Shown one piece after another: positions 1 to 64,000 of a stretch of DNA of 64,000 nucleotides; position 1 is the first letter of the stretch, and each line of letters opens with the position of its first letter. The position numbers and the translations under genes were made by a program. The stretch is from assembly GCF_006345805.1 (NCBI RefSeq), contig NC_042998.1, positions 158,720,001 through 158,784,000 of the forward strand, written 5' to 3'. The notes beneath the pieces are model-generated. The model did no database searches. It was given only the letters and a program-made list of their open reading frames with translations, and was not told the origin of the DNA. Source of the DNA: Octopus sinensis. Lineage: Eukaryota.

Positions 1-173
1 AACCTTTGCGTATTTTCTCGAGATTACTCATGGACCAGCACCCTGGTTTTCAAATAGAAGTAATCGTTTGTACTGAGCTACAAAGATTGGTTGAAAACAC
101 AAGGCACGTTATATAAATCTGCCGAATTATCGTGTCTCCATGCCATGAAACTGCTAGTGACTCTTATATGTTT

Positions 174-450
174 CTCACTCCTCTCTCTCTCTCTCACTCT
201 TTCTTTTTCTCTCTCTTTCTCTCTATCTCTTTCTCTTTCTCTCTCTCTCTCTTTCTTTTTCTCTCTCTTTCTCTCTCTCTTTCTTTTTCTCTCTCTCCCC
301 CTCTCTCTCTCTCTCGATATATATATGTACATGCACATATATATGCATATACATAGTGTGTGAGTGTATAAGCACATATACACGTACGCACATACATACC
401 TACACACACATATACATAGATACTTACGTGTGTTTGTGAGTGTGTGTGGA
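174..450. repeat. (CT)n/(CTTT) tract followed by (TA)/(CA)/(TG) microsatellites
   Basis: Direct dinucleotide periodicity; explains the ORFs at 78-508. Confidence 0.95.
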
Positions 451-1007
451 AAAGGCATGAATGTTGCACCTCCCATTTCACTTTATCTTTGTCCTTGATG
501 AAGAGCAAGTGATATTACACGAACATGTTGTTATCGATTTTAGTTGAACCTATAACAACACCAGTTAAATTACTGTATTGATTTCGTTTGACTGACTGAC
601 TCCGCCTATAAATATTTAAGAGATTATAGAAGTCAGCAGATATAAATAACGCTAGTTAAATATGTTGAAACCGCCGAGCTGAAAATAGGCGGGAATGTTG
701 GAATAGTAACTTTAGAAGAAAGTTGGAGCAAAGGTGTGGCCAAAGAAATATAAATACACAAGAAAATGAACGAAACAAAATAAAATGAGATAAATTAAGA
801 GAGAATACCATCAAGGAATAGATAAAATCATGGCATAGAATTGAAATTCAGCCTGACTCAGAATTACTTCCTATTTAGTGTGTTTGGTTGTGTTTGCTTG
901 ATGTCAGAAAATAAACGTTTGAAAGTAAATTAAATGTTGTTGGATGAAATATGTGAATATGAACTAAATGTTGTGGTAGAAATTAATGATATGTAAAATA
1001 AAGGAAA

Positions 1008-1224
1008 GACGGCTAGCTGGCCGAGTCGTTAGAGTATCGGGCAAAATGATTTGCGACATTTCTTCTAGTTCTTTACGCTTTGGGTTCGAATTCTGCCGAG
1101 ATAGACTTTGCCATTCGCATTTTCGAGGTCGATAAATTAAGTACCAGTGAAACACTGGGTTCGATGTAATCGGCTAGTCCCCTTCCCCCTAAATTTCAGG
1201 CCTTGTGTCTTTAGTAGAAAGGAT
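1008..1224 (+). mobile_element. tRNA-derived SINE, family A (core GACTTTGCCTTTCATCCTTTCGGGGTCGATAAATTAAGTACCAGT)
   Basis: A-box-like AGCTGGCCGAGTCGTTAG and B-box-like GGTTCGAATTC; the core recurs more than 15 times in the window. From memory the core resembles the Deu/Nin-type SINE domain (unverified). Confidence 0.85.
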
Positions 1225-1239
1225 ATGTAAGATAAAAGA

Positions 1240-1452
1240 GGTAGCGAGCTGGCAGAATCGTTAGAGCGGCAAGTAAAATGTTTTGCGATATTTCTTCTAG
1301 CTCTTTCAGCTCTGAGTCCGAATTCCGCTGAGATCGACTTTGCCTTTCGTCCTTTCAGAATTGATGAATTAAACAATAGTTTAACAGTGGGATCGCTGTA
1401 ACTGACTTACCTCAACCCTTAAAATTACTGGCCTTGTGCCAAAATTTGAAAC
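1240..1452 (+). mobile_element. SINE family A, tandem second copy
   Basis: Same head and core; tail GGCCTTGTGCCAAAATTTGAAAC. Confidence 0.85.
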
Positions 1453-2301
1453 GTTGTAAAAGATGAGGAAAGAAGGAAAAGAGAAAAAAGGCAAGTAAAG
1501 AAACAGATTATGGATGTGGTGGAGAGAAATGCAACAAAGCATTTTTGGTACCCACGTTTGGTATGAAAAGATGTAATGGTGTTAGTTGTTGGTGGGAGAA
1601 GAAGATGCGGAAAACAAACCAAAAACTTGAAAGAAACGTGGTGAAGTGGGCGTGAGAATAAATATTAAGAGTGGGGAAAGAAGTCTGTGCTGGTAATGAA
1701 TTGGTTCCTTTGAAGAAAGAGGTAGCTGCATGCAGATACTACTTTAGATGTTAGAGAGAAGATACAAAAGGGGACGGATCTAAGGAAGAAAAAAAGATGA
1801 ACGAAAAAGAAGAGAGGAGAAAAAAGAAACAAAACAAGAAAGAAATAAAGAAACGGAGTAAAAGAGAAAGAAGGAACAAAGAAAGAAATGAAGAGAGAAA
1901 AAAGTAAAGAAAGAAAGGAAAGCAGGAGTAAAAGTACAAAATAGAATGTGGAAAATGTTTTTCTATTGCTTATTTGTCCTTAATATATTATTGAATGGCG
2001 AAGAAACAGAAAAATCATTGAAAACAAAATACCGATCTCTTCGAAAGGTTTTCAATTGGGTTTCCTTTCTTTCTTTTGTCTTTTTTTTCTGCGAGGGTTG
2101 AGGTGATGAGGGGATGGTGTTTATTTTTGTTTGTTTGTTCATCTGTTTTGGGCTGTTTTTTTTTGGCTTTCTCTTTCTGTTGACTCCTCCCATCATATGT
2201 GCGTGAATGTGATTGAGCTTGGTGTTCTTTGTTTCTCTTTTTTGTTTTCCTATAATGTTTTGTTAATTATGCTTTAAGTTGTGCGTTCAGAAATACACAG
2301 G

Positions 2302-2357
<56 letters not shown>

Positions 2358-2554
2358 TTTGTATGTATATGTATACATATAGAGATAGATAGACAGATAT
2401 GTATGTGTCTATATATGTATATGTATATGTATACCCATACACAAATGTGTGTGTGTGTATGTGTAAGATATACATACATGCATACATACATACACACACA
2501 CACGCACACACACACGTGCACACACACACACACAACACACACACACACACACGT

Positions 2555-2596
<42 letters not shown>

Positions 2597-2622
2597 CACA
2601 CACACACATATATATATATATA
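2302..2622. repeat. (TA)n/(CA)n compound microsatellite
   Basis: Direct periodicity. Confidence 0.95.
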
Positions 2623-3310
2623 ACTATTCGCAAGTTTCCGATTTAGAAATGGTGAATCAGTGCTTGTGATTGTTCGTAGACCACGTGATTTCGTTCAAAT
2701 CGCATTGTACATAGTGTAATGATTTTTACCCCTTCCAGGTCGGGTCATTAGAACAGAGCTGGTGTCTTTACGCCATCGAAGTGAATCGTGACTGCATGAA
2801 TAGAGGCGGTGCTGCTCGCTACACTGCTATGGCAAAATTAGTCAATCATCATCACAACCACAATAACTATTGCAGCAGCGACACCCCCACCCCACCATCA
2901 GCAACAACAACAATAATCATAATCATAATCATAATAATTGATCGAGTGAAAAAAAGATGGAGAGATTGAACATACTTTGTTGTTTTGTAATCGGTATTTA
3001 ATGTGTATTGTACAGATCCTTTCAATCTTAATATAATGTGTTGGGGCATGCGTGTGTGTGTGCGTGCGTGTGTGAGGAAGGGGGGGGGGCATGTGTGTGT
3101 GCACATGGGCGCGCGTGTGTAAGTCCGTAATGTAATGTGTTGTGTGAACTTAATGGTTGTATCCGAAAATTGCAATGGAATTTCTATGTGATATTATGAT
3201 AGTATGATAGTTTGAGCCGCACAAATCGATAGATCGGAAGTTCGTATCATGGACCTGTCTTACCACACCCTTATTATTTAATCCTTTAGTTTAGCTGACT
3301 ATCTATATAC

Positions 3311-3395
<85 letters not shown>

Positions 3396-4371
3396 CAAGT
3401 ATCATTTTAAGGGGGAAAACAGTTAATTGGCCACTATTTTCTTAAGAAATTTAATTAGTTCATTTAAAGTTAATAAAGCAAATAGCAGTAATATGATGGG
3501 GTCTTTTTATGAGGCGGCCCATGAACATTTTAGTTCAAAATTAACGACTTTGACATGATTGATGCTCAAATATTGGCCTTAGGCGAAATACATTAGCATT
3601 TCTTCTTTCATAATTTATGAGCACAGTAGAAGAGAGAAAGAGAGAAAATGGGGAGAGAGAGAGAGGATGGAGGGGGTCGTAGAAGGATGGGCTTATGTTT
3701 TAATGCTAAGTTATAACCAATTTGCCTCACGCACTTATACAAACTTGTGTTCCTTTATTTCATCACACCGTCATAACCGAAAACGATTTCACTTCATTTA
3801 CAATTTCATTTTATTTGTATATTGCTAACACGTTTTAAAATCCATAAGTGTCACATCATCCTACTTGCATTTTTACTTTTTAAGGTTTAAAAACATGTAT
3901 TTGTTACGTATCAGAGAGCAAAACATGAGTGAAATTACTAAATAACACGATATATTAGGCAGTCTCAAAGAAAATAAAACTGTAGACAGACTTTACTGCA
4001 CACGATCTGCTTCAAATGGCTGCTAGATTTCGCTCTTAGTACATTGTTAAATCGGGGTACACGTCTTAGAAAATGTAAAAGCATGCTCTACAATAAGAAT
4101 AAGGCAAGAGTTTTAATCAATCAGCTGTACTGTGTGTTTGTGTGCGTTGAGCTAACTGAATCTATTCAACAACATCCGGGTCCATGTATTGATAATAATA
4201 GCCACTAGGTGGCTTTGGATAAAGAAAACAGGTTAGCTGTTACTCAAAGTTTGCTGCTGCGGCTACTGGGTTAACTGGTTGGTCAAAGACCCGAAATCCC
4301 TTAAGATCTTCAAAACATCACTGATGATGCATCCCAGAGTATCCGTGAGATGTATCTTGGAACTAAAAAAT

Positions 4372-9479: not shown

Positions 9480-10207
9480 TCGTGCGGACATTTTGGTCGA
9501 GAGACTCTCCTACCGTTATCGTTCCCTACTCTACCTTCGCCCGTCCAGAGAAAACGCCACAGGAAAGTACTGTGGTTCACACCGCCATCCTCTTTAAACG
9601 TTAAGACGAGAATAGGTAAGATCTTCCTTAGTTTAATTGATAGACACTTCCCAATAGATTCAAGAAAATATTTAACAGACATACCCTGAGATTATCCTTT
9701 AGCTGTGCACCTAGCGTAAAAAAGAATTTATTAGGTAAACCCAGACCAGGGACTGAGGCAGGTTGCTCATGCAGAAGTAATACAACTTGTCCACTAAACG
9801 CCACTGCAATACGGAAACAGTTGTTTACGAGGAAGAAGTAACGGCAACAAGATTCAATGGACAACCAAGCGTGCGAAAGTATGTGGAGGCAACAGAAGGC
9901 CCCTCAGAACACGCTCTCATAACCAAAAGTCCTCATTCAATATCCCAGAGAGACGTAACGCCACAACCCTTGCCAAGCACGTCTGGACTTTGAAAGAAAG
10001 CGCCACGGTGTACAGCATAAGGTGGAAGATCCTAGAAAGATGCAAACTGTACTTCAATAGCAGTAGGAAGTGCAGACTATGCCTGGCTGAGAAGATAGCA
10101 ATTTTAAAAGGTACCCAACGCCCGGATGTTTACCTGAATAGCAGGTGTTTAATATTTGCCGGCATGAAAAGGCGTGCATTTTATCGTACCTGCGCGTCCC
10201 ACTATGA
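9480..10207 (+). mobile_element. Penelope-like element remnant: linker plus GIY-YIG endonuclease (frameshifted), probably Naiad-type
   Basis: Translations [95 protein letters not shown] are typical PLE linker and EN motifs. Confidence 0.88.
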
Positions 10208-17999: not shown

Positions 18000-19197
18000 G
18001 CATCATGACGAACAAAAATTTTTTTAGATGACTGCCCACTATAAGAAAACTAATAACAATAGAAATAGTGAGAATAATGATTTCAGCTCTAAAAATGTCG
18101 ATACCACTAGACTTAAGAAAAATAATTTACGGACCAGGGGAGGCAATCGGCAATCAACCCCAATATTCCAGCACAGAAATATTCCCTTTAATGTAAATGG
18201 TAACACTCTGAACAATTCTAAGTCCTCAAAAAAACTATATCTGGTTTGTCATACCTTTCGGAAAACAAATCAAGTCAAACCTTCCTTTACAGTTCCGTGA
18301 AGCCGTAGCTAGGAACTTTCCCAGGAATTCTAGGTATTACTCTACTATCAATTCGCATAAGGTAAGGATTGCATTCTATAACACTAGAAATCTATCGCAA
18401 ATTATTTCCTCCCATAATAACAAGCTGCTAAGTAAGGATTCTTCACCCGGGAGTCACGACACTGCTCTTATCAATTCCAACCAAACATACAATGATAATA
18501 ATAATAGAAATAGTATTGATAATAGCAACATTCATAGGAGCGTTGGGATTAACAATAGTAATATTAATAATAATATTAGTCGGATTATTAACAGTGATAG
18601 TGTTAGTGGTAACAACGACAGCATTTCTAATAACAATGGTAGTATTGATGATAACAACCCCAGCATTTCTATAGTCAGGGATATTGCCGGCGTTAGTACA
18701 ATTAATAATAATAACAATAATAGGAATAATATAGTGGTCAGTGCTAGCAATAGTATTAACAGCAATCATAACAATAAAAACTCCGTCTTAGTCTCGGATT
18801 AAAGTTCTTGTCCAGCAATTCCAAAATTAGAAATTCCATTTACCAGTGTAAAATTTCTTCCGGTACCGGTGTCTTCTTCTACATTGGGGCGACTACTTCT
18901 AAATTATCCCAGAGGATTTCCAATCATTATTCAACTTTCCGAGATAAGAGAAAACAACAAAGCCCAGGACTAAGTAAATTAGTTTGGCGCCTTAAGGACA
19001 GCAATATAACTTTTAAGGTGGAATGGTCCATATTGTCTGTATCCTTTCCGTTTGATAAAGGCAGAAAATTTTGTGGCGTCTGTAATTCCGAACTTTTCCA
19101 TATACTTTTCGCCAAATTCCCTTTAGTAAACACTATGGTAGAAAAATCCTATAGGTGCATGCACTGGCAGAAACACACCTTCAACTCATATGAATGA
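18000..19197 (+). mobile_element. Penelope-like element remnant: Asn-rich linker plus GIY-YIG endonuclease
   Basis: YIWFVIPF and NFPRNSRYYSTINSHKVRIAF..RNLSQIISSHN linker motifs. ORF 18808-19197 has SIYQC..FYIGAT..RISNHYSTF..LSKLVWRLK..VEWSIL..CGVCNSE..CMH. Confidence 0.88.
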
Positions 19198-21409: not shown

Positions 21410-21760
21410 ATGTCCGAGACCATCATTTATCAAACCACCGTAGACTCTACAACCACTAAGGACATAGTTTCGTCAAAGAAATATATGGGTCTCACTGATG
21501 GAATTTCAAAGCTGGATTCAACAATCACACCTTGAGCTTCAGACACAGGGGAAAAAGAAAAACAACCAAATTATCCAGTTATATATGGTCCTTAAACTAT
21601 AACATCCATTGGAAGATCTTAGCCTTACACCAACGGCAGTGGAAAGTGCGGACTTTGTGATATGGAAAGATGGCTCACCTGGAAAAACAGCTTAGACTCC
21701 GCTACATGTCTAAATTCAAGAACTGAAAATTTTGGAAATGTCCGCTGTGACTAAATATTT
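21410..21760 (+). mobile_element. Penelope-like GIY-YIG endonuclease remnant
   Basis: TIIYQTTV..KKYMGLTDG..FNNHTLSFRH..TKLSSYIWSL..IHWKIL..KCGLCDMER..LNSRTE, with frameshifts. Confidence 0.85.
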
Positions 21761-27213: not shown

Positions 27214-28269
27214 TTGAAAGAAAAATTTAAAGAAATATCCCCTTTGGAAAAGGATATAATTTTAAATGCTAGGAAAATTCTAATCGCATATAATAAGAAG
27301 GGTTGGACTCGAAGTAATACTCAGCATAACTTCGATATAACTATGGGGTCAGCGGATTCAGCCCAGATTACTGATTTGGTGGCTCACTTTCTACTTTCTG
27401 AAATTAAAAAGTAGTTTTCCCACTATCAAGGGAGGCCTTTATAGAGATGATGGCTTATTTGTGATCCCTAATCCATCACTACGTAATAGAGTTAAAACTA
27501 GAAAAGCTTTATCAAATTTTTTTTAAGAAATATAATGTAAATATAACCGCCAATAATACTACCAAAATAGCTACTTTCCTAGATGTTACCCTCAGTTTAA
27601 ACAATGACTAGTATTCCTCATACCATAAGCTGAATAAGGTAATACAATATATAAACTGTAAATCAAATCATCCCGGTATTGTTATAAACGCTATTATAAC
27701 TGGGGTATCCATTAGAATATCAAATTTTTCTGGTAATGAAGATATATTTAATAATCATGCCCTCCTACATAAGCAAGTTTTCAGAAAGGGTAACTTAAAT
27801 GAGAATAAGTCAGTAATAAACAGCCAGATAAATTACCCAAATAAGCAATTTGTGCATAAACTATATGGTTTTAGAAATACGAATTATAGGCAGACTGTTA
27901 CTACTAATAAAAATGATTATAAGGAATCTAGGAAGCGGGATATTATTTGGCTCAATCCAGCTTTTTTCCCTCCAAATTAGGAACCTCCCTAAATTATTTT
28001 ATAAGAGTGTCGAGAAAGACTTTTCCCCAAGGGGACATAAAAATTCATTTATTAACCCCCAATACAGCTCCATATCTAGTCTCAATTATAGCCACAAATA
28101 ATAGATATAAACTTAGTAATAAAATTAGTAATGGTTTAAATAAAGATCCTATGGGGGCAGTTTCTAGTGAAACAAACTGTAGTATTGATATAGCGGATAA
28201 GAGTACCACTACTAAGTCCTTAAATGAAACTTTAACTGCAGCTCCCAGGAGGGAATTGCCTGAGAAAAA
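27214..28269 (+). mobile_element. Penelope-like reverse transcriptase remnant (Naiad-type motifs)
   Basis: FDITMGSADSAQITDLV, GGLYRDDGL, TFLDVTLSL, QYINCKSNHP, SRKRDIIWLNP; contains stops and frameshifts. Confidence 0.88.
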
Positions 28270-54975: not shown

Positions 54976-55064
<89 letters not shown>

Positions 55065-55124
55065 CTAGATAGATATAGATATAAATAGATATATAGATAT
55101 AGATATAGATATAGATAGATAAAA

Positions 55125-55420
55125 TGTACTTGGAAAAGGATGCGTGGCGTTCGATGATATAATAATATAAATAATATATAAATATATACATATATACATA
55201 CATATATGTACATACCTACATATATATGTATATATACATGCATATATTGGTACAGGACATCAAAAAAACGTTGAACACAATGATAAACGAAAACATAAAA
55301 ACAAAAACATAGAAACGACCTTTTTTTCAAACAACGAAAAAAAAAACAGATTACAAGACATACAACACAAGGAATACTTCCCTTCTTCAGTTGTACTTGT
55401 TTCATCTGCTCCGCGTTTCT
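55125..55420 (-). repeat. Unclassified dispersed repeat (relatives at 50165-50872 and 58630-59060)
   Basis: The GGATGCGTGGCGTTC..ATAATATAAATAATATATA block is shared with 59010-59060. Confidence 0.65.
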
Positions 55421-55427
55421 ATATATA

Positions 55428-56189
55428 TAGAGTGCGATTGGTAAATTGTCGCCAGTTAGGCCCTGTCTGTGAGAAAAACAGTACCATGATGCAATTCACT
55501 CTGCCAGAAATTTGGAAACAACATGCTGTACTGCTTGGCATTTACACCGGAAGCTCCAATACGAACATTTCAGAAGGTTTAGGTGTCAATCTGAGGACAT
55601 GTACCAGTCAACATCATGGTGTTTGGAGTGATCACTAGTCATGGTGACGTTATGCCTCCATTAATCTTCCCACACGGCCTCACACTCAAAACGGAGGCCT
55701 ACATCAAGTGCCTGGAGGGAGTAGTGCTGCCCTAGGTCAAGAGAGTGGCAACTGGAAGACCTAATGTCTGGCACCAGGACTCTGCACCATGCCACACAAG
55801 CAGGGGAACCCTATCATGTTATCAAACAATTTCTGCGACCACATCACCCCTAACATCTGGCCACCTAACTTCCCAGACTGCAACCCCCTTGGTTATTATG
55901 TGTAGGGCACAGTTAAGCGAGAGATCAACAAAGCTCTTTGTAACACCAAATAGTAAATGAAGACAAGGATCATGGTAGCATTCATCAACTTAGACAAGAA
56001 AATCATCCAGAAGAATTGCAAGAGATTCCGAAGTTATCTGGAGGCACTGGCGATTTTATTAAATAAATTTACTGTTTAGTATTTCAAGATATTTCTATGT
56101 AATTTTGGTCAATATATCTGTTAAAATGAAATGTCAGTGTTATTTTCATTTTTGCGTAATTTAGTTGACACTTTATTCAGCGCACCCTG
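55428..56189 (+). mobile_element. maT (DD37D) Tc1/mariner-superfamily transposon, internally deleted
   Basis: IMVFGVITS.GDVMPP, WHQDSAPCH..WPPNFPDCNPL(G), with 37 residues between the second D and the third catalytic position (one frameshift). Degenerate TIRs TAGAGTGCG / CGCACCCTG. Confidence 0.82.
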
Positions 56190-56198
56190 CGTACGTGC

Positions 56199-56200
<2 letters not shown>

Positions 56201-56229
<29 letters not shown>

Positions 56230-56345
56230 TGTATGTATGTATGTATGTATGTATGTATCTATGTATGTATGTATAGATAGATAGATAGATTGATAGATAG
56301 ATAGATAGATGATAGATAGATAGATAGATATAGATAGATAGATAA

Positions 56346-56401
<56 letters not shown>

Positions 56402-56417
56402 AGATAGATAGATAGAT

Positions 56418-56512
<95 letters not shown>

Positions 56513-56560
56513 GATAGATAGATAGATAGATGGATAGATAGATAGATAGATATAGATATG
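56201..56560. repeat. (TATG)n and (GATA)n microsatellites
   Basis: Direct periodicity. Confidence 0.95.
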
Positions 56561-56600
56561 AATGTATGTATATACGTATGCATGTATGTATGTAAATATA

Positions 56601-56764
56601 CGAGGGGTGATGAAAAGATCCTGCCTTTGGGTAAAAGAAAATATAACAGATTCAGTTAATTTCACTCTTAAATTCACACATTTATTGCAGTTTTTCTAAA
56701 CCCTGTAAAATAACAAGGCCTTTCGTGACACCCTTAACGCAAGAGGCTTTTCAGTACCCACTCG
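56601..56764. mobile_element. Mariner-derived MITE
   Basis: TA|CGAGGGGTGATGAAAAG ... CTTTTCAGTACCCACTCG|TA; imperfect TIRs with TA TSD, 164 bp. Confidence 0.72.
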
Positions 56765-56774
56765 TATATATATA

Positions 56775-56805
<31 letters not shown>

Positions 56806-57025
56806 AATACACACACATACATACATACATACATACATACATGCATGCATGCATGCATACATGCATACATACATACATACATACATACATACATACATAC
56901 ATGCATACATGCATGCATGCATGCATGCATACATACATACATACATACATACATACATACATACATACATACATGCATACATGCATGCATGCATACATGC
57001 ATACATACATACATACATACATACA

Positions 57026-57056
<31 letters not shown>

Positions 57057-58104
57057 GTATGTATATTATTGAAATTTCATCGGGGACTCGAAAGCCTTGA
57101 GTGTGATTAGGTGGATAACACTAAACATTTTCGTTCTATTATTCTGATATTATATCTTACTTAATTATAGTATATTTTATATAATTTTACATTTATTGTT
57201 TTTAATGCACACTTTGTATGACGTTCTTGCCATTCCTATCATTTATATATAACTTACTCTTACTCGTTCACATATATTTTGTAACCAGCATATTCTGAAT
57301 CCTTTTGGATAATAGAGAAAAGGTTAATAGCATGCGTATTTAAAAACAAAACGGAGCTAGCCTACCACAATCTATCGCAGGACAATGTAAGGAAAATTTT
57401 AAAACAAAGAACGCGGATAACTGCCAGTCTAAACTGTTCGAAATGTACCTGCCTATGAAATGGTCTCACGATATTTGGGGAGGAGAAACACAGGGTTTAC
57501 CATCAGGGGCATTGTTTAGGATCTCGATCCCTGGATTGGGGTCACATTGGTGACACCGCATGGGCACGTCATCAGTACCGACGTAACTTTCAACGATATC
57601 TAATCGAATGCGGTCACTTAAGCCACAAAAGATTTCCAGTATTATTACTTGTACAAGGTACTGAAAGCAAGGCCTACGAAATCGGTATCCAAACTAGAAA
57701 ACCCAGATGAATCACATTCGGAAGTAAAAACTAAAACTACAAAAACAACAAATTCTAGAGTTTGCTTATCATGAGACGGTCCCAGACACTACTCTGAAGT
57801 CATCAAAACTCATTGCCAGGAAACACAAGAACGCCTTTCTGTTAGGCTGAAGCAGCGAAGACAATGAAAGCTATCCCATACAACGCCACTAGGAGTAACT
57901 TAAAAACGAAAAAGGATAGTGCCTAAAAACAGTCAAAATCGTTTTTAAAATGCGAGGAGGTGAACTTTTCTCCGAATTCTTTGACACTAAGTGTGATTTC
58001 TTTCTTTATGAGGGGATCGTTCTGTTAGTTACAATGCTCATTTGTTACTAAACTGTCATTGCTTTTCATGAGAGTGTGGCACACACAAAATCGTACGATT
58101 ATAT

Positions 58105-58322
58105 ACTGACTTCAAATTTTTGGCACGAGACTAGCACTTTTAGGAAGTAGGTAAGTCAGTTATATCAACTTCAGTGTTCAACTGGTATTTATTTTATTGA
58201 CCCTGAAAGGGATGAAAAGTAAAGTCGAACCCGCTAAAATTTGAACTCGTGACGTAAAGACGGACAAAATACCATTGACCATTTCCCCCGGCTTGCTAAC
58301 AATTCTGCCAGTTCGCAGCCTT
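58105..58322 (-). mobile_element. SINE family A
   Basis: Reverse-complement head, core and tail. Confidence 0.78.
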
Positions 58323-58432
58323 CCGCGTTTATATTAATGCTTTAATGTTTGTTTACACACACGCACACACATATGTATGCGTGTGTGCGTGTGTGTGTGT
58401 GTGTGTGGGTGCGTGTGTGTGTATATATATGT

Positions 58433-58564
<132 letters not shown>

Positions 58565-58565
58565 A

Positions 58566-58597
<32 letters not shown>

Positions 58598-59080
58598 ATT
58601 TATCTAGTTTCAGCTCACAATATATTTATATATAAACAGGACAGTGGAGACATTCAAGGAAACCTAACGAAAGCAAACATGGAGGGTCGTTAGACCAGAA
58701 CGAGGGTAAACTAGTGAACGCTGGAGAAATATTTTCTTTGGCAAGAGAAAAGATAGGCGAGAGAGAGAGATAGGATACGTCCAGTCCTTAGGACAGTCCT
58801 GAAAGAAAACAAAGATGATCATGTGAGGAAAAGAAAGATTGATGATGATCACGTGTGAGCAACGAGAGAGGGAGAACAGGAGAAAGAGGGGAAGATGGAC
58901 AGACAGGTAGAAAACAGTGAAGAGGAGAAAAAGGGAATTAGAGAAAGGATGAGAGAGAAAACGATAGAGGAGAAAAACAGAATAGAGTCGCATCAAAAAG
59001 ATTAAGATAAACTTGGAAATGGATGCGTGGCGTTCAATCAAATAATATAAATAATATATATACCTACACACACACACACG

Positions 59081-59137
<57 letters not shown>

Positions 59138-59170
59138 GTGAATAATAACAGACGATGGACAATTGTTAGC

Positions 59171-59253
59171 TCATTACATATGTTTCTTACGCATTTTTTA
59201 AATAGAAGAATGAGAACATTAATCCATTACAAAAAACCGTAATCATCAGATGA
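59171..59253 (-). ncRNA. Type I minimal hammerhead ribozyme (left arm)
   Basis: Minus strand reads TCAT-CTGATGA-TTACG..CGTAA-GAAA-C-ATAT-G-TA-ATGA; all three stems pair; GUA triplet at 59177-59175. Confidence 0.82.
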
Positions 59254-59396
59254 AACGTTATTTAATTAACAAAAGAATATCCCAATAATACAGCAGGGAT
59301 GTGGGTGAATCCTGTGGAGGCTAACTTATACTCGACATACTTCAGCCACATCCCTGCTCTATTCTTGGGATATTCTTTTGTTTTTTAAATTACGTT

Positions 59397-59481
59397 TCAT
59401 CTGATGATTACGGTCTTTGGTAATAGAAGGATTTTCTCAATCTTCTATTTAAAAAAAAAACGTAAGAAACGGATGTAATGA
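59397..59481 (+). ncRNA. Type I minimal hammerhead ribozyme (right arm)
   Basis: TCAT-CTGATGA-TTACG..CGTAA-GAAA-C-GGAT-G-TA-ATGA; GUA triplet at 59475-59477. Confidence 0.8.
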
Positions 59482-59769
59482 TCTGACAATTGTCCATTGT
59501 CAGTTATTAGTCATTTGATTATAATAAACCAACGGGATTTACGATTTGTCGAACACCCTAGAGTATACCAACAACGTACAATTCAACGTAACACGTGCTG
59601 TGGACCAGCCCCTAGGCACTAAATACTCATCGTGTTGGTTTTCTCTGTGTACACAAACAGAATATCCTGTTTGATACTTACCAACCGTAGGCTGCAACCA
59701 CAGGTTTATCCAACTTTACCCGGTGCATATCTTTTGAAATACCTGGTTCTATGTGAATCTTCATTTTAC

Positions 59770-59889
<120 letters not shown>

Positions 59890-59903
59890 TAGATAGATAG
59901 ATA

Positions 59904-60555
59904 CCACTAGCTAAAATCAGATCTAAGGCTCGAATACCGCCAGGAACTCACAATAAAGATACGCACGAGCAATGCAATGAACATATTAGAAATAGGGTTA
60001 CCGTTGCGTTGAATACATCAGGAAGTAACTGTATATTTCAATAACTATTGATTTCATCCGCTGTATGATCAACATGCTCTGGATTTTCAGTTGAATACAA
60101 CATTTTTACATCTATTTCTAAAATATTTACTACATTAGCGCGCAAGCGTTCCTTACTTTCAACGTCCCGCTCCGTTTAAAAGAAAACTATCGTGAGCAAG
60201 AATATATATTTTTTTTTAAATTTATAATTAACGTTATTAATGATATTAACAAGATTATAATAAGGAGGCCAGCAAGTTCACACCATTACAGGCACAATAT
60301 AAGGCAAATTTAGATACGGTAGAGTATAAGTGCCACTTGCTAAAAACAGAGCCAAGGCTCGAAAACCACCAGAAACTCACAATAAAGATACGTACAAGCA
60401 ATGCAATGAACATATTAGAAATAGGTTTCCCTTTGCGTTGAATACATCAGTAAGTAAATGTATATTTCAATAACAATTGATTTCTCTCTCTCTGTAATCA
60501 ACATACTCTGGGATCTTCAGTTGAAAATAACATATTAACATTTACTTCTAAAATA
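59904..60555. repeat. Diverged direct repeat (~220 bp) at 59904-60125 and 60333-60555
   Basis: Shared AACTCACAATAAAGATACG..GCAATGCAATGAACATATTAGAAATAGG..TTGCGTTGAATACATCAG; roughly 80-85% identity by eye. Confidence 0.85.
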
Positions 60556-60701
60556 GTCACTAGTTAGATAGGTATTCTGCTCCTGCAGTGAAATGTGGCG
60601 CATACACATACCAGGTTGGGAGTTGATATGATAAAATATAAAAATTTCAGAATAGTATAACAGATGGCTTGCTGGTTTATATATATATATATATATATAT
60701 A

Positions 60702-61951
60702 CTAGCAGTATGACCCGTCGTTGCCGGGTCATAGTGCTAGTGCATGTATATATGTGTATATATATGTGTACATATTACATGTACATCTATATATATATAT
60801 ACATCTACACATAAAATACAAAATACAAAGTTATATTTTGATATCGCTAGTGATAACAATACTCAAAATATATAACAGACTGGAATTGTTAGCCGGTCTC
60901 TTGCAATTTCGATCAATTGTATCTTGTCCTCCCTTTTGTATAGAAGTGTGGCTACAATCCAGCCTACCTCTACTTTGGGAGGGGGGGGGGCATTAAAATT
61001 TTTTTTTCCGGGACGTCCTACGTCCCAGATATAAAGGTAAAAATAAAATATTTCCACTTTGCAAGGTCGAGTCGAGTACTCCCTTGCACGCTCCGTTGAC
61101 TCGAACCTTGCTTCTATTGTGGCGAATTTACCGCCTCTGATTAGATACCTTTCATAGTCGCACCAAGACACTTTTTGAAGGTGCTTTCTTCCATGTGTTC
61201 TTTTTTCTCTACATTTTTTTTTTCTTTACATTGTATACTTTTTTCTCTTCTTTTTTCTCTACATTGTATACTTTATAGACAATAGTCTTTTCTTTAATTT
61301 AATTTTTTATTATCCATCTTGACTATTCCATTTCTGCATGCTAATTTTATTTTTAATTTATTCCCATTCATGTAAAACCACTTATTCAAGTTCAAGTCAT
61401 TGATGCAATTTTATACCAATTGCTATTTTTACTTTTGTTATGTTACGATTATATTATACTTTAGTTTGATTTTAATTATTACTTACTACATATAATTCAA
61501 TTGTTATTATTATTTTTATTGTTAAAGTGTAAATATCTGACATAAAATAGAGAAACGTTTTTGTTTCACTTTTAACACGTAATACTGAAATAGTGGAGAA
61601 GATATAATATTGCTATGGGCCGCTCTAGGCAAGAAGTTGAACATTTTTTTTTTTTTTGGCTATGAAACTACATGGACCATAAATAAGGCATGTGCAAAAT
61701 TTGAATGGAATTGGTTGTGTAGTTATCAAGTTTTAGGGAATCGTAGTGGAGAAGATATGATATTGCTATGGGCTCGCCCTAGGCAAAAAGTTCAAACATT
61801 TTTTTGCCGATGACACTCCCCGGACACTAAGTAAGACATGTGTAAAATTTGAATGAAATTGGTTGTGTTGTTCTCAAGTTTTAGGGAAACACACAGACAG
61901 ACAGACAGATAGACAGACACACACACATTCTCAGTTTTATATATATAAAGA
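60702..61951 (-). mobile_element. Non-autonomous Helitron
   Basis: Minus strand starts A|TCTTTATATATATAAAA (5' TC) followed by (TCTG)n, and ends with hairpin TGACCCGgcaacgaCGGGTCA then CTAG|T. It sits between A and T with no TSD and has an internal ~150-bp tandem duplication (61590-61888). Confidence 0.8.
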
Positions 61952-61964
61952 TATATATATATAC

Positions 61965-62350
61965 TGAAACAAATGGACTCCAGTACTTGAGTTTTTAAAA
62001 ATCTGGTACTTATTCTATCAATGCTTTTGGTCAAACCGCTAAGTTATATGAATGTAGACAAATCAACCACAGTTGTCAAGCAGTGGTGGGGTCAACTACA
62101 ACACGCGCGTGCACACACGCACACACAAACATACATCCATTCACATGAACATGCAAACACACACAAACACGTGCAACCACACACAAACACGTGTATGCTT
62201 ATACGACAGGATTCTTCAGCTTTCCACTTACCAAATTCACCCACAAAGTATTGGTCAACCCGAAGCTTTTGTAGAAGACACTTGCCCAGTGTGCTGCGTA
62301 GTAGGATTGAACCCGAAATCATGAGGCTACAAAGTGACCTTCTTAACCGT
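61965..62350 (-). mobile_element. SINE family D, degenerate
   Basis: GAAGACACTTGCCCA, CCAAATTCACCCACAAAG and TACTTATTCTATC blocks shared with 50344-50760. Confidence 0.7.
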
Positions 62351-62529
62351 ACAAAGAAATAATTAAAAATAAAATCACGTAACTTCCTGCAGGCCCCTGC
62401 TCATTTGAAAATATTAAAAGTTATATTAGATGATGTAGATTGAGATAAAATTGAGATGGTCTGCAGCTAGATGCCTTGGACTAAATTATTTTGACCAGGG
62501 TGAAGCAATGATATTAAATTAATTTGAAA

Positions 62530-62745
62530 GCAGCGAGCTGGCAGACTCGTTAGTACGCCTGGCAGAAAGCTTAGCGGCATTTCGTCTGTCTTTACCCTCT
62601 GAATTCAAATTCCACCGAGGTTGAATTTGCCTTTCACCTTTTCGGGGTTGATAAAGTAAGTACCATTTGAGCATGGCGGTTGATGTAATCGACTATTCCC
62701 TTCCCGCCAAAATTGCTTGACCTTGTTCCAAAATTTGAAACCAAT
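62530..62745 (+). mobile_element. SINE family A
   Basis: Head, core and tail. Confidence 0.85.
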
Positions 62746-63636
62746 ATTAAACGAATTTTCTTGCGACTACTAGAACGGTTTTAACGATGTTTACGAAAAG
62801 AAATGCCTTATATAGCGGGCAGTCTTCTTGTGTGCTTTATGCAATGTTAAGAGTGAGGAGTGGATTAACAAAACCGTTTGTGTGTTCGAACAACGTTTTC
62901 TAGTAATATCTAGTTCTGATCGCCAATATCTTATTTATGAAATGTGTGGCTTTGTGCCAAATAACAATATTGGGTCCAAATTTTGGCACCAGGCCAACAA
63001 TTTCCGGGAGGATGTAAGTCGCTTACATCGACCCCAGTGCTCAACCCCGAAAGGATGATAGATAATATTATTTCCTAAAAATACTTCAAAGAACGTGCAA
63101 AGATTTAACGTTAGTGTAGTGTAAGGGAAGTAACTCTTGACTACTTGCTTCGGATTTTCTTCCGTGATTGTGAGCTGTCATGAGTGAGGGAAGCGAACAA
63201 TAAACAGAAACTACTACACAGATATAACATTATTTGATTTTAATTATGTTCTTGCAAACTACCAAATATTTCAGAAATCTGTTTCCACTATCATAGATTA
63301 TTTTATTAGAAAAAATTCCTATTTTATGTCTATAATTATTTAGTGGACACAGCAATGTAAATTAGTTATACATGTTGGTTTCAACTTACGATTGAAAGAT
63401 CAACTATTTCGTTCAATTTTTAAAATTATTTATTTATTTATTTATTTATCAATACTATAGCAAAATAACTATATTTTTACGTATAAAGGGACAAGCAGAA
63501 TGAATCGACGAAGTATATGGCTGGTACTGAGGTTATGAAATCGTAATAACATAACATTATGACTTTATTGTTATATTTCGGAATGGTCATTTTGCCAGTT
63601 TAGCCAATATTATGACTTTAATAATTACAAAATATA

Positions 63637-63850
63637 AGGCAACGAGCAGGCAGAGTCGTTGGCGCAGTGGAGAACATGCTTAGAGGCATTTCTTCTGGTT
63701 TTATACGTTCTGGATTCAAATTCCACCGAAGTCGACTTTGCCATTCACATTCACCTAACTGGCTCATAAACTAAATACAAAATGAAAACTGAGATAAAAG
63801 TAATCGACTACAAGCAATTGCTGGTCTGGTACTGAAGTTTACAAATATTA
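63637..63850 (+). mobile_element. SINE family A, degenerate
   Basis: Head and GTCGACTTTGCC core. Confidence 0.7.
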
Positions 63851-64000
63851 TTAATATACAAGCAGTGTAATTAATATACCGGCATTGATTTAAATAACTT
63901 TGTGGATGAACTCATCCACAAAGTTATACCAGTTAATTTGAAAGCAGAATCTAGACAGAGAAACTAAAATACTTTCATGTATTTTACTTTGTTTGCTAAC

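Follow-up and report, generated by a model that had tools for sequence, protein, structure and literature searches.

Arms and hammerhead motifs of the insertion

The window, the whole 64-kb stretch of DNA analysed here, contains an ORF-less insertion that sits between a (CA)n and a (TA)n microsatellite. In it, the end of a Penelope-like element (PLE), Hydra-like by its sequence motifs, is present twice in head-to-head orientation, and one of the two copies continues into a tail (Table 1). Positions within the family are given below as q coordinates, with q1 = 59331. Contigs from independent sequencing runs span both the centre and the right arm, differing there at 0-4 positions. No host-gene Pfam domain scored above the cut-off in the 106 ORFs of the window, a search that small exons would escape. 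To the right of the insertion, a direct repeat of ~230 nt is found at 59897-60132 and 60326-60562, its copies being 430 nt apart and ~85% alike.

Table 1 Features of the locus (positions in the window).
Feature	Position	Strand	Remarks
Whole insertion	59135..59770		two head-to-head Hydra-like PLE end copies, without ORF; the outer ends correspond to the family's two recurring 3' end points
Inverted pLTR arm	59135..59326	-	outer end is the short 3' end of the family (q~185-191)
pLTR arm, sense with tail	59331..59517	+	
~250-nt tail	59518..59770	+	finishes at the family's long 3' end (q437)
Type I hammerhead motif	59397..59481	+	long loop II, loop III GGAT (non-palindromic), predicted cut after 59477
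Type I hammerhead motif	59171..59253	-	predicted cut after 59175; helix/loop III palindromic, loop II long
Head-to-head junction	59317..59345		1 match genome-wide at <=3 mismatches
(CA)n microsatellite, left end, target site	59064..59136		family ends adjoin microsatellites
(TA)n then (GA)n/(GATA)n, right end, target site	59769..59900		family ends adjoin microsatellites

An earlier note on this DNA had described an imperfect palindrome of ~380 nt with one type I hammerhead per strand, diverging from the centre, and both observations are borne out. The segment 59135-59517 folds at -212.6 kcal/mol, compared with -69.9 +/- 5.4 kcal/mol for shuffled sequences (z -26.5), none of 100 shuffles being equally good. 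A pairing-aware descriptor found both hammerheads and gave no match in 20 block-shuffled windows. On the + strand it located CUGAUGA at 59401-59407, GAAA at 59466-59469 and the GUA site at 59475-59477; the match on the - strand runs from 59249 to 59175. The features of a type I hammerhead (core CUGANGA, GAAA, UH, and helices I-III) can thus be assigned to putative motifs on both strands. As the note had also stated, the core letters and the paired stem letters are identical in the two arms. Loop III is not alike, being GGAT on the + strand and ATAT on the - strand; AGCT is the commonest version in the family (35 of 69 arms), so that the left arm carries a loop that is palindromic, yet other than the family's.

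The label "minimal" does not suit these motifs, whose stem II segment measures 56-58 nt with the long loop included. The proposed check with Infernal gave no hammerhead family from Rfam, either at E<=1 in 55000-64000 or at E<=10 in 59130-59760. Both motifs were probably missed because loop II is long, and we do not read this result as absence of the motif. The loop II hairpin of the right arm (59422-59449, + strand) is well paired, more so than in the majority of the family's copies, which could reflect quasi-palindrome template switching; one of its letters differs in sequencing run X3.

Dual hammerheads on opposite strands, 100-700 bp apart, are described for Schistosoma in the accessible part of Cervera & De la Pena (2014, PMC4209133). 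As far as that part goes, the present motifs resemble PLE and minimal hammerheads in being of type I with a short helix I, in occurring as nearby opposite-strand pairs, and in the family's 2-bp helix III with a palindromic loop. They differ in their loop II, which is long and structured, in the base of stem II, where U-A takes the place of G10.1-C11.1, and in having no extra base after A9.

The hammerhead is predicted to be the ordinary pLTR ribozyme of the family, which would require a same-strand dimer partner. At this locus, modelling predicts that the ribozyme is silent, because there is no such partner and because the right arm has lost its palindromic loop III, its self-duplex being calculated at -2.3 rather than -9.0 kcal/mol. 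A further reason is that the complementary arm would be transcribed first, whichever strand is read, and that forcing the hammerhead fold within the full rod costs 73-77 kcal/mol. This penalty backs the earlier suggestion that the rod would sequester its own ribozyme.

Relationship to a Penelope-like element

A search of the genome with the element returned at least 90 matches (40 scored of 524 candidates). Among those fetched, 81 distinct loci carry an arm, with both arms present in 18, and many family copies are single arms. The reading favoured in the note, that extreme truncation of a PLE with an inverted pLTR produced the element, gains support from other copies in which the arm is physically joined to sequences encoding reverse transcriptase (RT) and a GIY-YIG endonuclease; the locus itself has no ORF, and the link is known from these other copies. 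Upstream of single arms lie a non-coding stretch of ~1.3 kb (3' UTR), then the GIY-YIG domain, then RT. The match to GIY-YIG (Pfam PF01541, E 3.9e-5) was above the cut-off in one of the three pieces tested. Locus L103 carries RT, endonuclease, UTR and arm in colinear order, with 3.6 kb between mid-RT and the arm, and L108 does so for RT, endonuclease and arm. In L182, the tail sequence continues into the start of an ORF with DKT and YRDD, and in L184 and L185 an RT fragment is adjoined by an inverted arm. No full-length unbroken copy was found for the family, and the element map was pieced together from several broken copies.

The endonuclease has a CxCX5C linker, and residues C22, C24, C30, E123, N138, C147 and H149 are invariant in seven aligned proteins; the CxxC is present in L103 and L104 and altered in L074. 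DKT stands in place of DKG in L182 and in L107, the latter from a sister family. The N-terminal RWK region reads RRIRRK in L182, RIRWR in L107 and RMRWK in the homologue P0004. An affiliation with Naiad/Chlamys was rejected, given that the endonuclease is C-terminal. According to the available text of Craig et al. (2021, PMC8557442), the Hydra clade is marked by a C-terminal GIY-YIG, the CxCX5C linker, DKT, CxxC and CxH around E and N, a (TA)n target and a hammerhead. The family shows all of these marks, the (TA)n target and the hammerhead included, and may on that basis be called Hydra-like. In contrast to the length of less than 3 kb given there as typical, the family element appears to be longer, and RWK is degenerate in the copy seen. 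No literature describing the family or counting such palindromes was found in a search mostly confined to journals open without subscription; the supplements of PMC8557442 catalogue Hydra families with their hammerheads and may cover this one.

The right arm had been said to run on into a tail, and it does, since family sequence extends as far as 59770; the part of the claim that did not stand was the end of the element at 59517. AATAAA at 59523, cited as an argument for a PLE, is a rare variant found in 2 of 44 copies, 36 of which have AATACA, and for this reason it was discarded as the polyadenylation signal of the family.

Other PLE remains were noted along the way. A third hammerhead of the window (17977-17905, - strand), with a palindromic loop III, starts at (TA)n and adjoins a 5'-truncated PLE ORF on the + strand (18239-19182), a textbook inverted pLTR from a sister family. 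More fragments of PLE endonuclease or RT lie on the + strand at 9903-10145, 21502-21727 and 27235-27827. L107 contains a near-complete Hydra-like ORF (85-3195, + strand) with one internal stop and an Asn-rich linker, followed downstream by a hammerhead at 4079-4155. Pfam gave no score for this ORF or for the RT ORFs of the sister family generally.

Insertion ends and head-to-head pairs

Copies of the family end recurrently at two 3' positions ~250 nt apart, near q185-191 and at q437, mostly against (TA)n or (CA)n; most of the 3' ends listed adjoin (TA)n or (TG/CA)n. When ends beyond q200 were classed as long, the 30 head-to-head junctions comprised 21 long+short, 7 long+cut, 1 short+cut and 1 long+long pairs, and no short+short pair. 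The inverted 5'-truncated copies at these junctions have 5' ends anywhere from q-1343 to q+389. Across the family, 5' ends nevertheless cluster, with 35 of 112 arm ends in q-25..+10 and 7 in the next 35 nt upstream, in a sample biased by the query towards short palindromes. Transcription may start at this cluster, or a hairpin may stop synthesis there. The hot spot (~59306-59340 in the window) adjoins a pyrimidine-rich tract that ends in AG, as well as a short inverted repeat; it is also used at both arms of L184 and is a candidate transcript start, splice acceptor or RT stop.

Similar arrangements are known from EN+ PLEs, whose insertion units, as far as presented in the available text of Craig et al. 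(2021, PMC8557442), contain an inverted copy with 5' truncation, along with a tail confined to one end. The locus shares with them the inverted 5'-truncated copy directly at the 5' end, the one-ended tail that stems from the first part of the main body, the pLTR hammerhead, the microsatellite target and the strong 5' truncation. It differs in being truncated to the point of having no ORF and in having a tail of ~250 nt, not 30-40 nt. For PAc Poseidon, the consulted portion of Frangione et al. (2024, PMC11167929) reports that the PLE protein cuts and extends both target strands in vitro, and that RT starts at two internal sites which define the tail. The two start sites match the two 3' ends found here, and the targets are AT-rich in both cases; PAc Poseidon belongs to another clade, and its sites are 30-40 nt apart. 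The same portion indicates no top/bottom preference in vitro, whereas the genomic loci described here carry one end of each kind. The occurrence of one end of each kind (21 of 30 junctions, with no short+short pair) provides genomic support for priming at two sites on two strands.

The locus is very probably an old, ORF-less insertion of a PLE end with Hydra-clade motifs, in which two hammerhead-bearing terminal repeats stand head to head, likely from two joined short cDNAs. The endonuclease would nick the (TA)n/(CA)n target on both strands, after which RT would begin one cDNA at the short site and, on the opposite strand, a second cDNA at the long site, the two-strand step being borrowed by analogy from the in vitro study of a different clade. 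Both cDNAs would stop close to one and the same 5' hot spot, which may be a hairpin or the start of the transcript, and, primed on opposite microsatellite strands, would be joined head to head. The arms would have been nearly identical at first and have since decayed to ~85% identity. In a read-through RNA from either strand, the complementary arm would be made first, and the ribozyme is predicted to be trapped in a long duplex. Most likely, the locus is a dead-end copy. As such it is a known product, the inverted pLTR of a PLE in a truncated Hydra-like insertion, and by itself matters little. Two by-products may be of modest use to specialists, namely the genome-wide pool of palindromes and the two 3' ends of the family, which lie ~250 nt from each other and are divided between the two sides of an insertion.

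This pool was estimated by searching the genome for a hammerhead with an intact core that points away from another CUGAUGA at a distance of 90-260 nt, which gave 728 + 699 = 1427 matches, compared with 3 + 1 = 4 in the control. The matches come from many families. Among those listed, 80 of 100 correspond to 40 loci matched on both strands; if this share holds, extrapolation gives ~570 loci with both cores, and the present locus is likely one among hundreds of back-to-back pairs in the genome. A stricter descriptor was passed on both strands by 7 of the 17 such loci examined. Loop III is palindromic in 27 of the 35 motifs listed, and the stems change sequence yet stay paired across families. 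Of 16 alignable palindromes of other families, 12 have arms that are alike at 95% or more; L158, which aligned on a microsatellite, is left out of this count. A number of several hundred such palindromes would amount to a large pool of templates for long-duplex RNA and a possible big source of dsRNA. Within most of the loci L150, L165 and L175, and L154, L159 and L164, the arms are 96-99% alike, compared with ~87-92% between loci of one family, which may reflect subfamily structure or arm-to-arm gene conversion.

Arm divergence, intact motifs and alternative origins

The note had counted ~22 differences between the arms, about two-thirds of them transversions. The count proved too low, as there are 28 differing aligned columns (30 differences plus 4 gap columns in a global alignment), and the proportion stood, with 19 transversions among the 28. 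This share exceeds the 170 of 414 found in 16 other palindromes (Fisher p 0.009), although those loci are themselves heterogeneous (p 0.019). L120 is also transversion-rich (15 of 22), and palindromes of other families have 77 transversions and 72 transitions, microsatellite ends counted in. The excess is that of a single locus, chosen post hoc among heterogeneous ones.

At core and stem positions of the two arms, we found no change among 66, as against 41 among 312 elsewhere. From the rates in the family, both motifs would be expected to remain unchanged in ~0.0013 per palindrome, and 2 of the 8 arms in the genome that match the family motif exactly are at this locus. If the family has 20-60 palindromes, which is a rough guess, one intact locus of this kind would turn up with a probability of a few per cent. 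Many families make such pairs, and intact ones are those that get picked; a doubly intact locus is therefore unremarkable, and ascertainment probably explains the intact double hammerhead.

The same counts would also fit a copy of the same origin that was later kept by selection, with centre-started or read-through transcripts using the hammerhead(s) or the long duplex, e.g. as an hpRNA/ADAR substrate or an RNA end-former. The lower than typical number of transitions and the well-paired loop II hairpin of the right arm go in the same direction, as do contigs from X3, a DNA-type sequencing run under another organism label, which are 97-98% like the locus and suggest that it predates that split; this comparison holds too few changes for a selection test. 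We nevertheless consider selection on this copy improbable, as the locus was picked for being intact out of hundreds of pairs in the genome, the palindromic loop III of the right arm is lost, with the weakened self-duplex given above, and X3 has a different letter in that very loop. The cost of the hammerhead fold within the full rod and the lack of host-gene Pfam domains within the limits of the ORF search weigh against it as well. If selection on the copy were shown, this would be a rare instance of two paired PLE ribozymes having been co-opted. We give equally little credence to the broader scenario in which double-primed Hydra-like insertions seeded hundreds of two-polarity rods and this old copy was co-opted, its ribozymes being kept to trim bidirectional or hairpin RNA; if true, viroid-like architecture could be reached within a genome, starting from retrotransposon ends.

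Rod-like folding with a hammerhead in each polarity is the architecture of Avsunviroidae and viroid-like satellite RNAs, and the rod of the locus, with one hammerhead per polarity, is like them. The note had raised as an alternative a non-autonomous family of ambisense-ribozyme retroelements whose mismatched rod is inherited, and had proposed as its test whether other copies keep the same arm-specific mismatches. They do not. At the 28 mismatch columns, 16 other palindromes showed the same pair of letters in 10 of 356 comparisons and the reversed pair in 11 (permutation p 0.50), L048 being left out because its arms meet at no junction. No column separates long from short arms (minimum p 0.073 among 186). 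Since the mismatches are locus-specific and the centre junction is unique in the genome, the mismatched rod is a product of local decay, not of inheritance. A retroelement of this kind, or a viroid-like rod spreading as a unit, is thus very unlikely, even though the clustering of 5' junctions gives many palindromes a similar size. The centres vary between loci, both in this family and within others, the outer ends are ordinary PLE 3' ends, and no monomer could be excised, since each strand has a single hammerhead and a tandem unit is lacking. Unlike Avsunviroidae and satellites, the locus is linear genomic DNA from a retrotransposon end, with both arms derived from one sequence, without a circular form or multimer, and with each ribozyme made after its complement.

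The number of derived letters in common is higher for the two arms of one locus than for arms taken from different loci (3.8 vs 1.6, p 0.0005), and their identity is only slightly higher (0.831 vs 0.809, p 0.065). Such shared letters would be expected if the palindrome had been made after insertion, by an inverted duplication at the DNA level or by fold-back repair of a single arm. We judge this, together with an assembly artefact, to be extremely improbable, because the inverted arm finishes at the short one of the family's two 3' ends, which most head-to-head loci also show, the independent contigs cover the centre and the right arm, and the arms are 15% apart, unlike an assembly fold-back.

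In what could be consulted of two sources (PMC7229834; bioRxiv 10.64898/2026.07.22.740005), animal non-LTR retrozymes resemble the locus in being ORF-less and pLTR-derived with a type I hammerhead. As presented there, retrozymes are head-to-tail tandems that give circular monomers, whereas the locus is one head-to-head pair; the retrozyme type of same-strand tandem is absent from it, with one hammerhead per strand and no second copy of it within the window. Elsewhere in the genome, same-strand hammerheads ~450-560 nt apart occur in tandem at L156, L171 and L179 and could represent retrozyme-like units.
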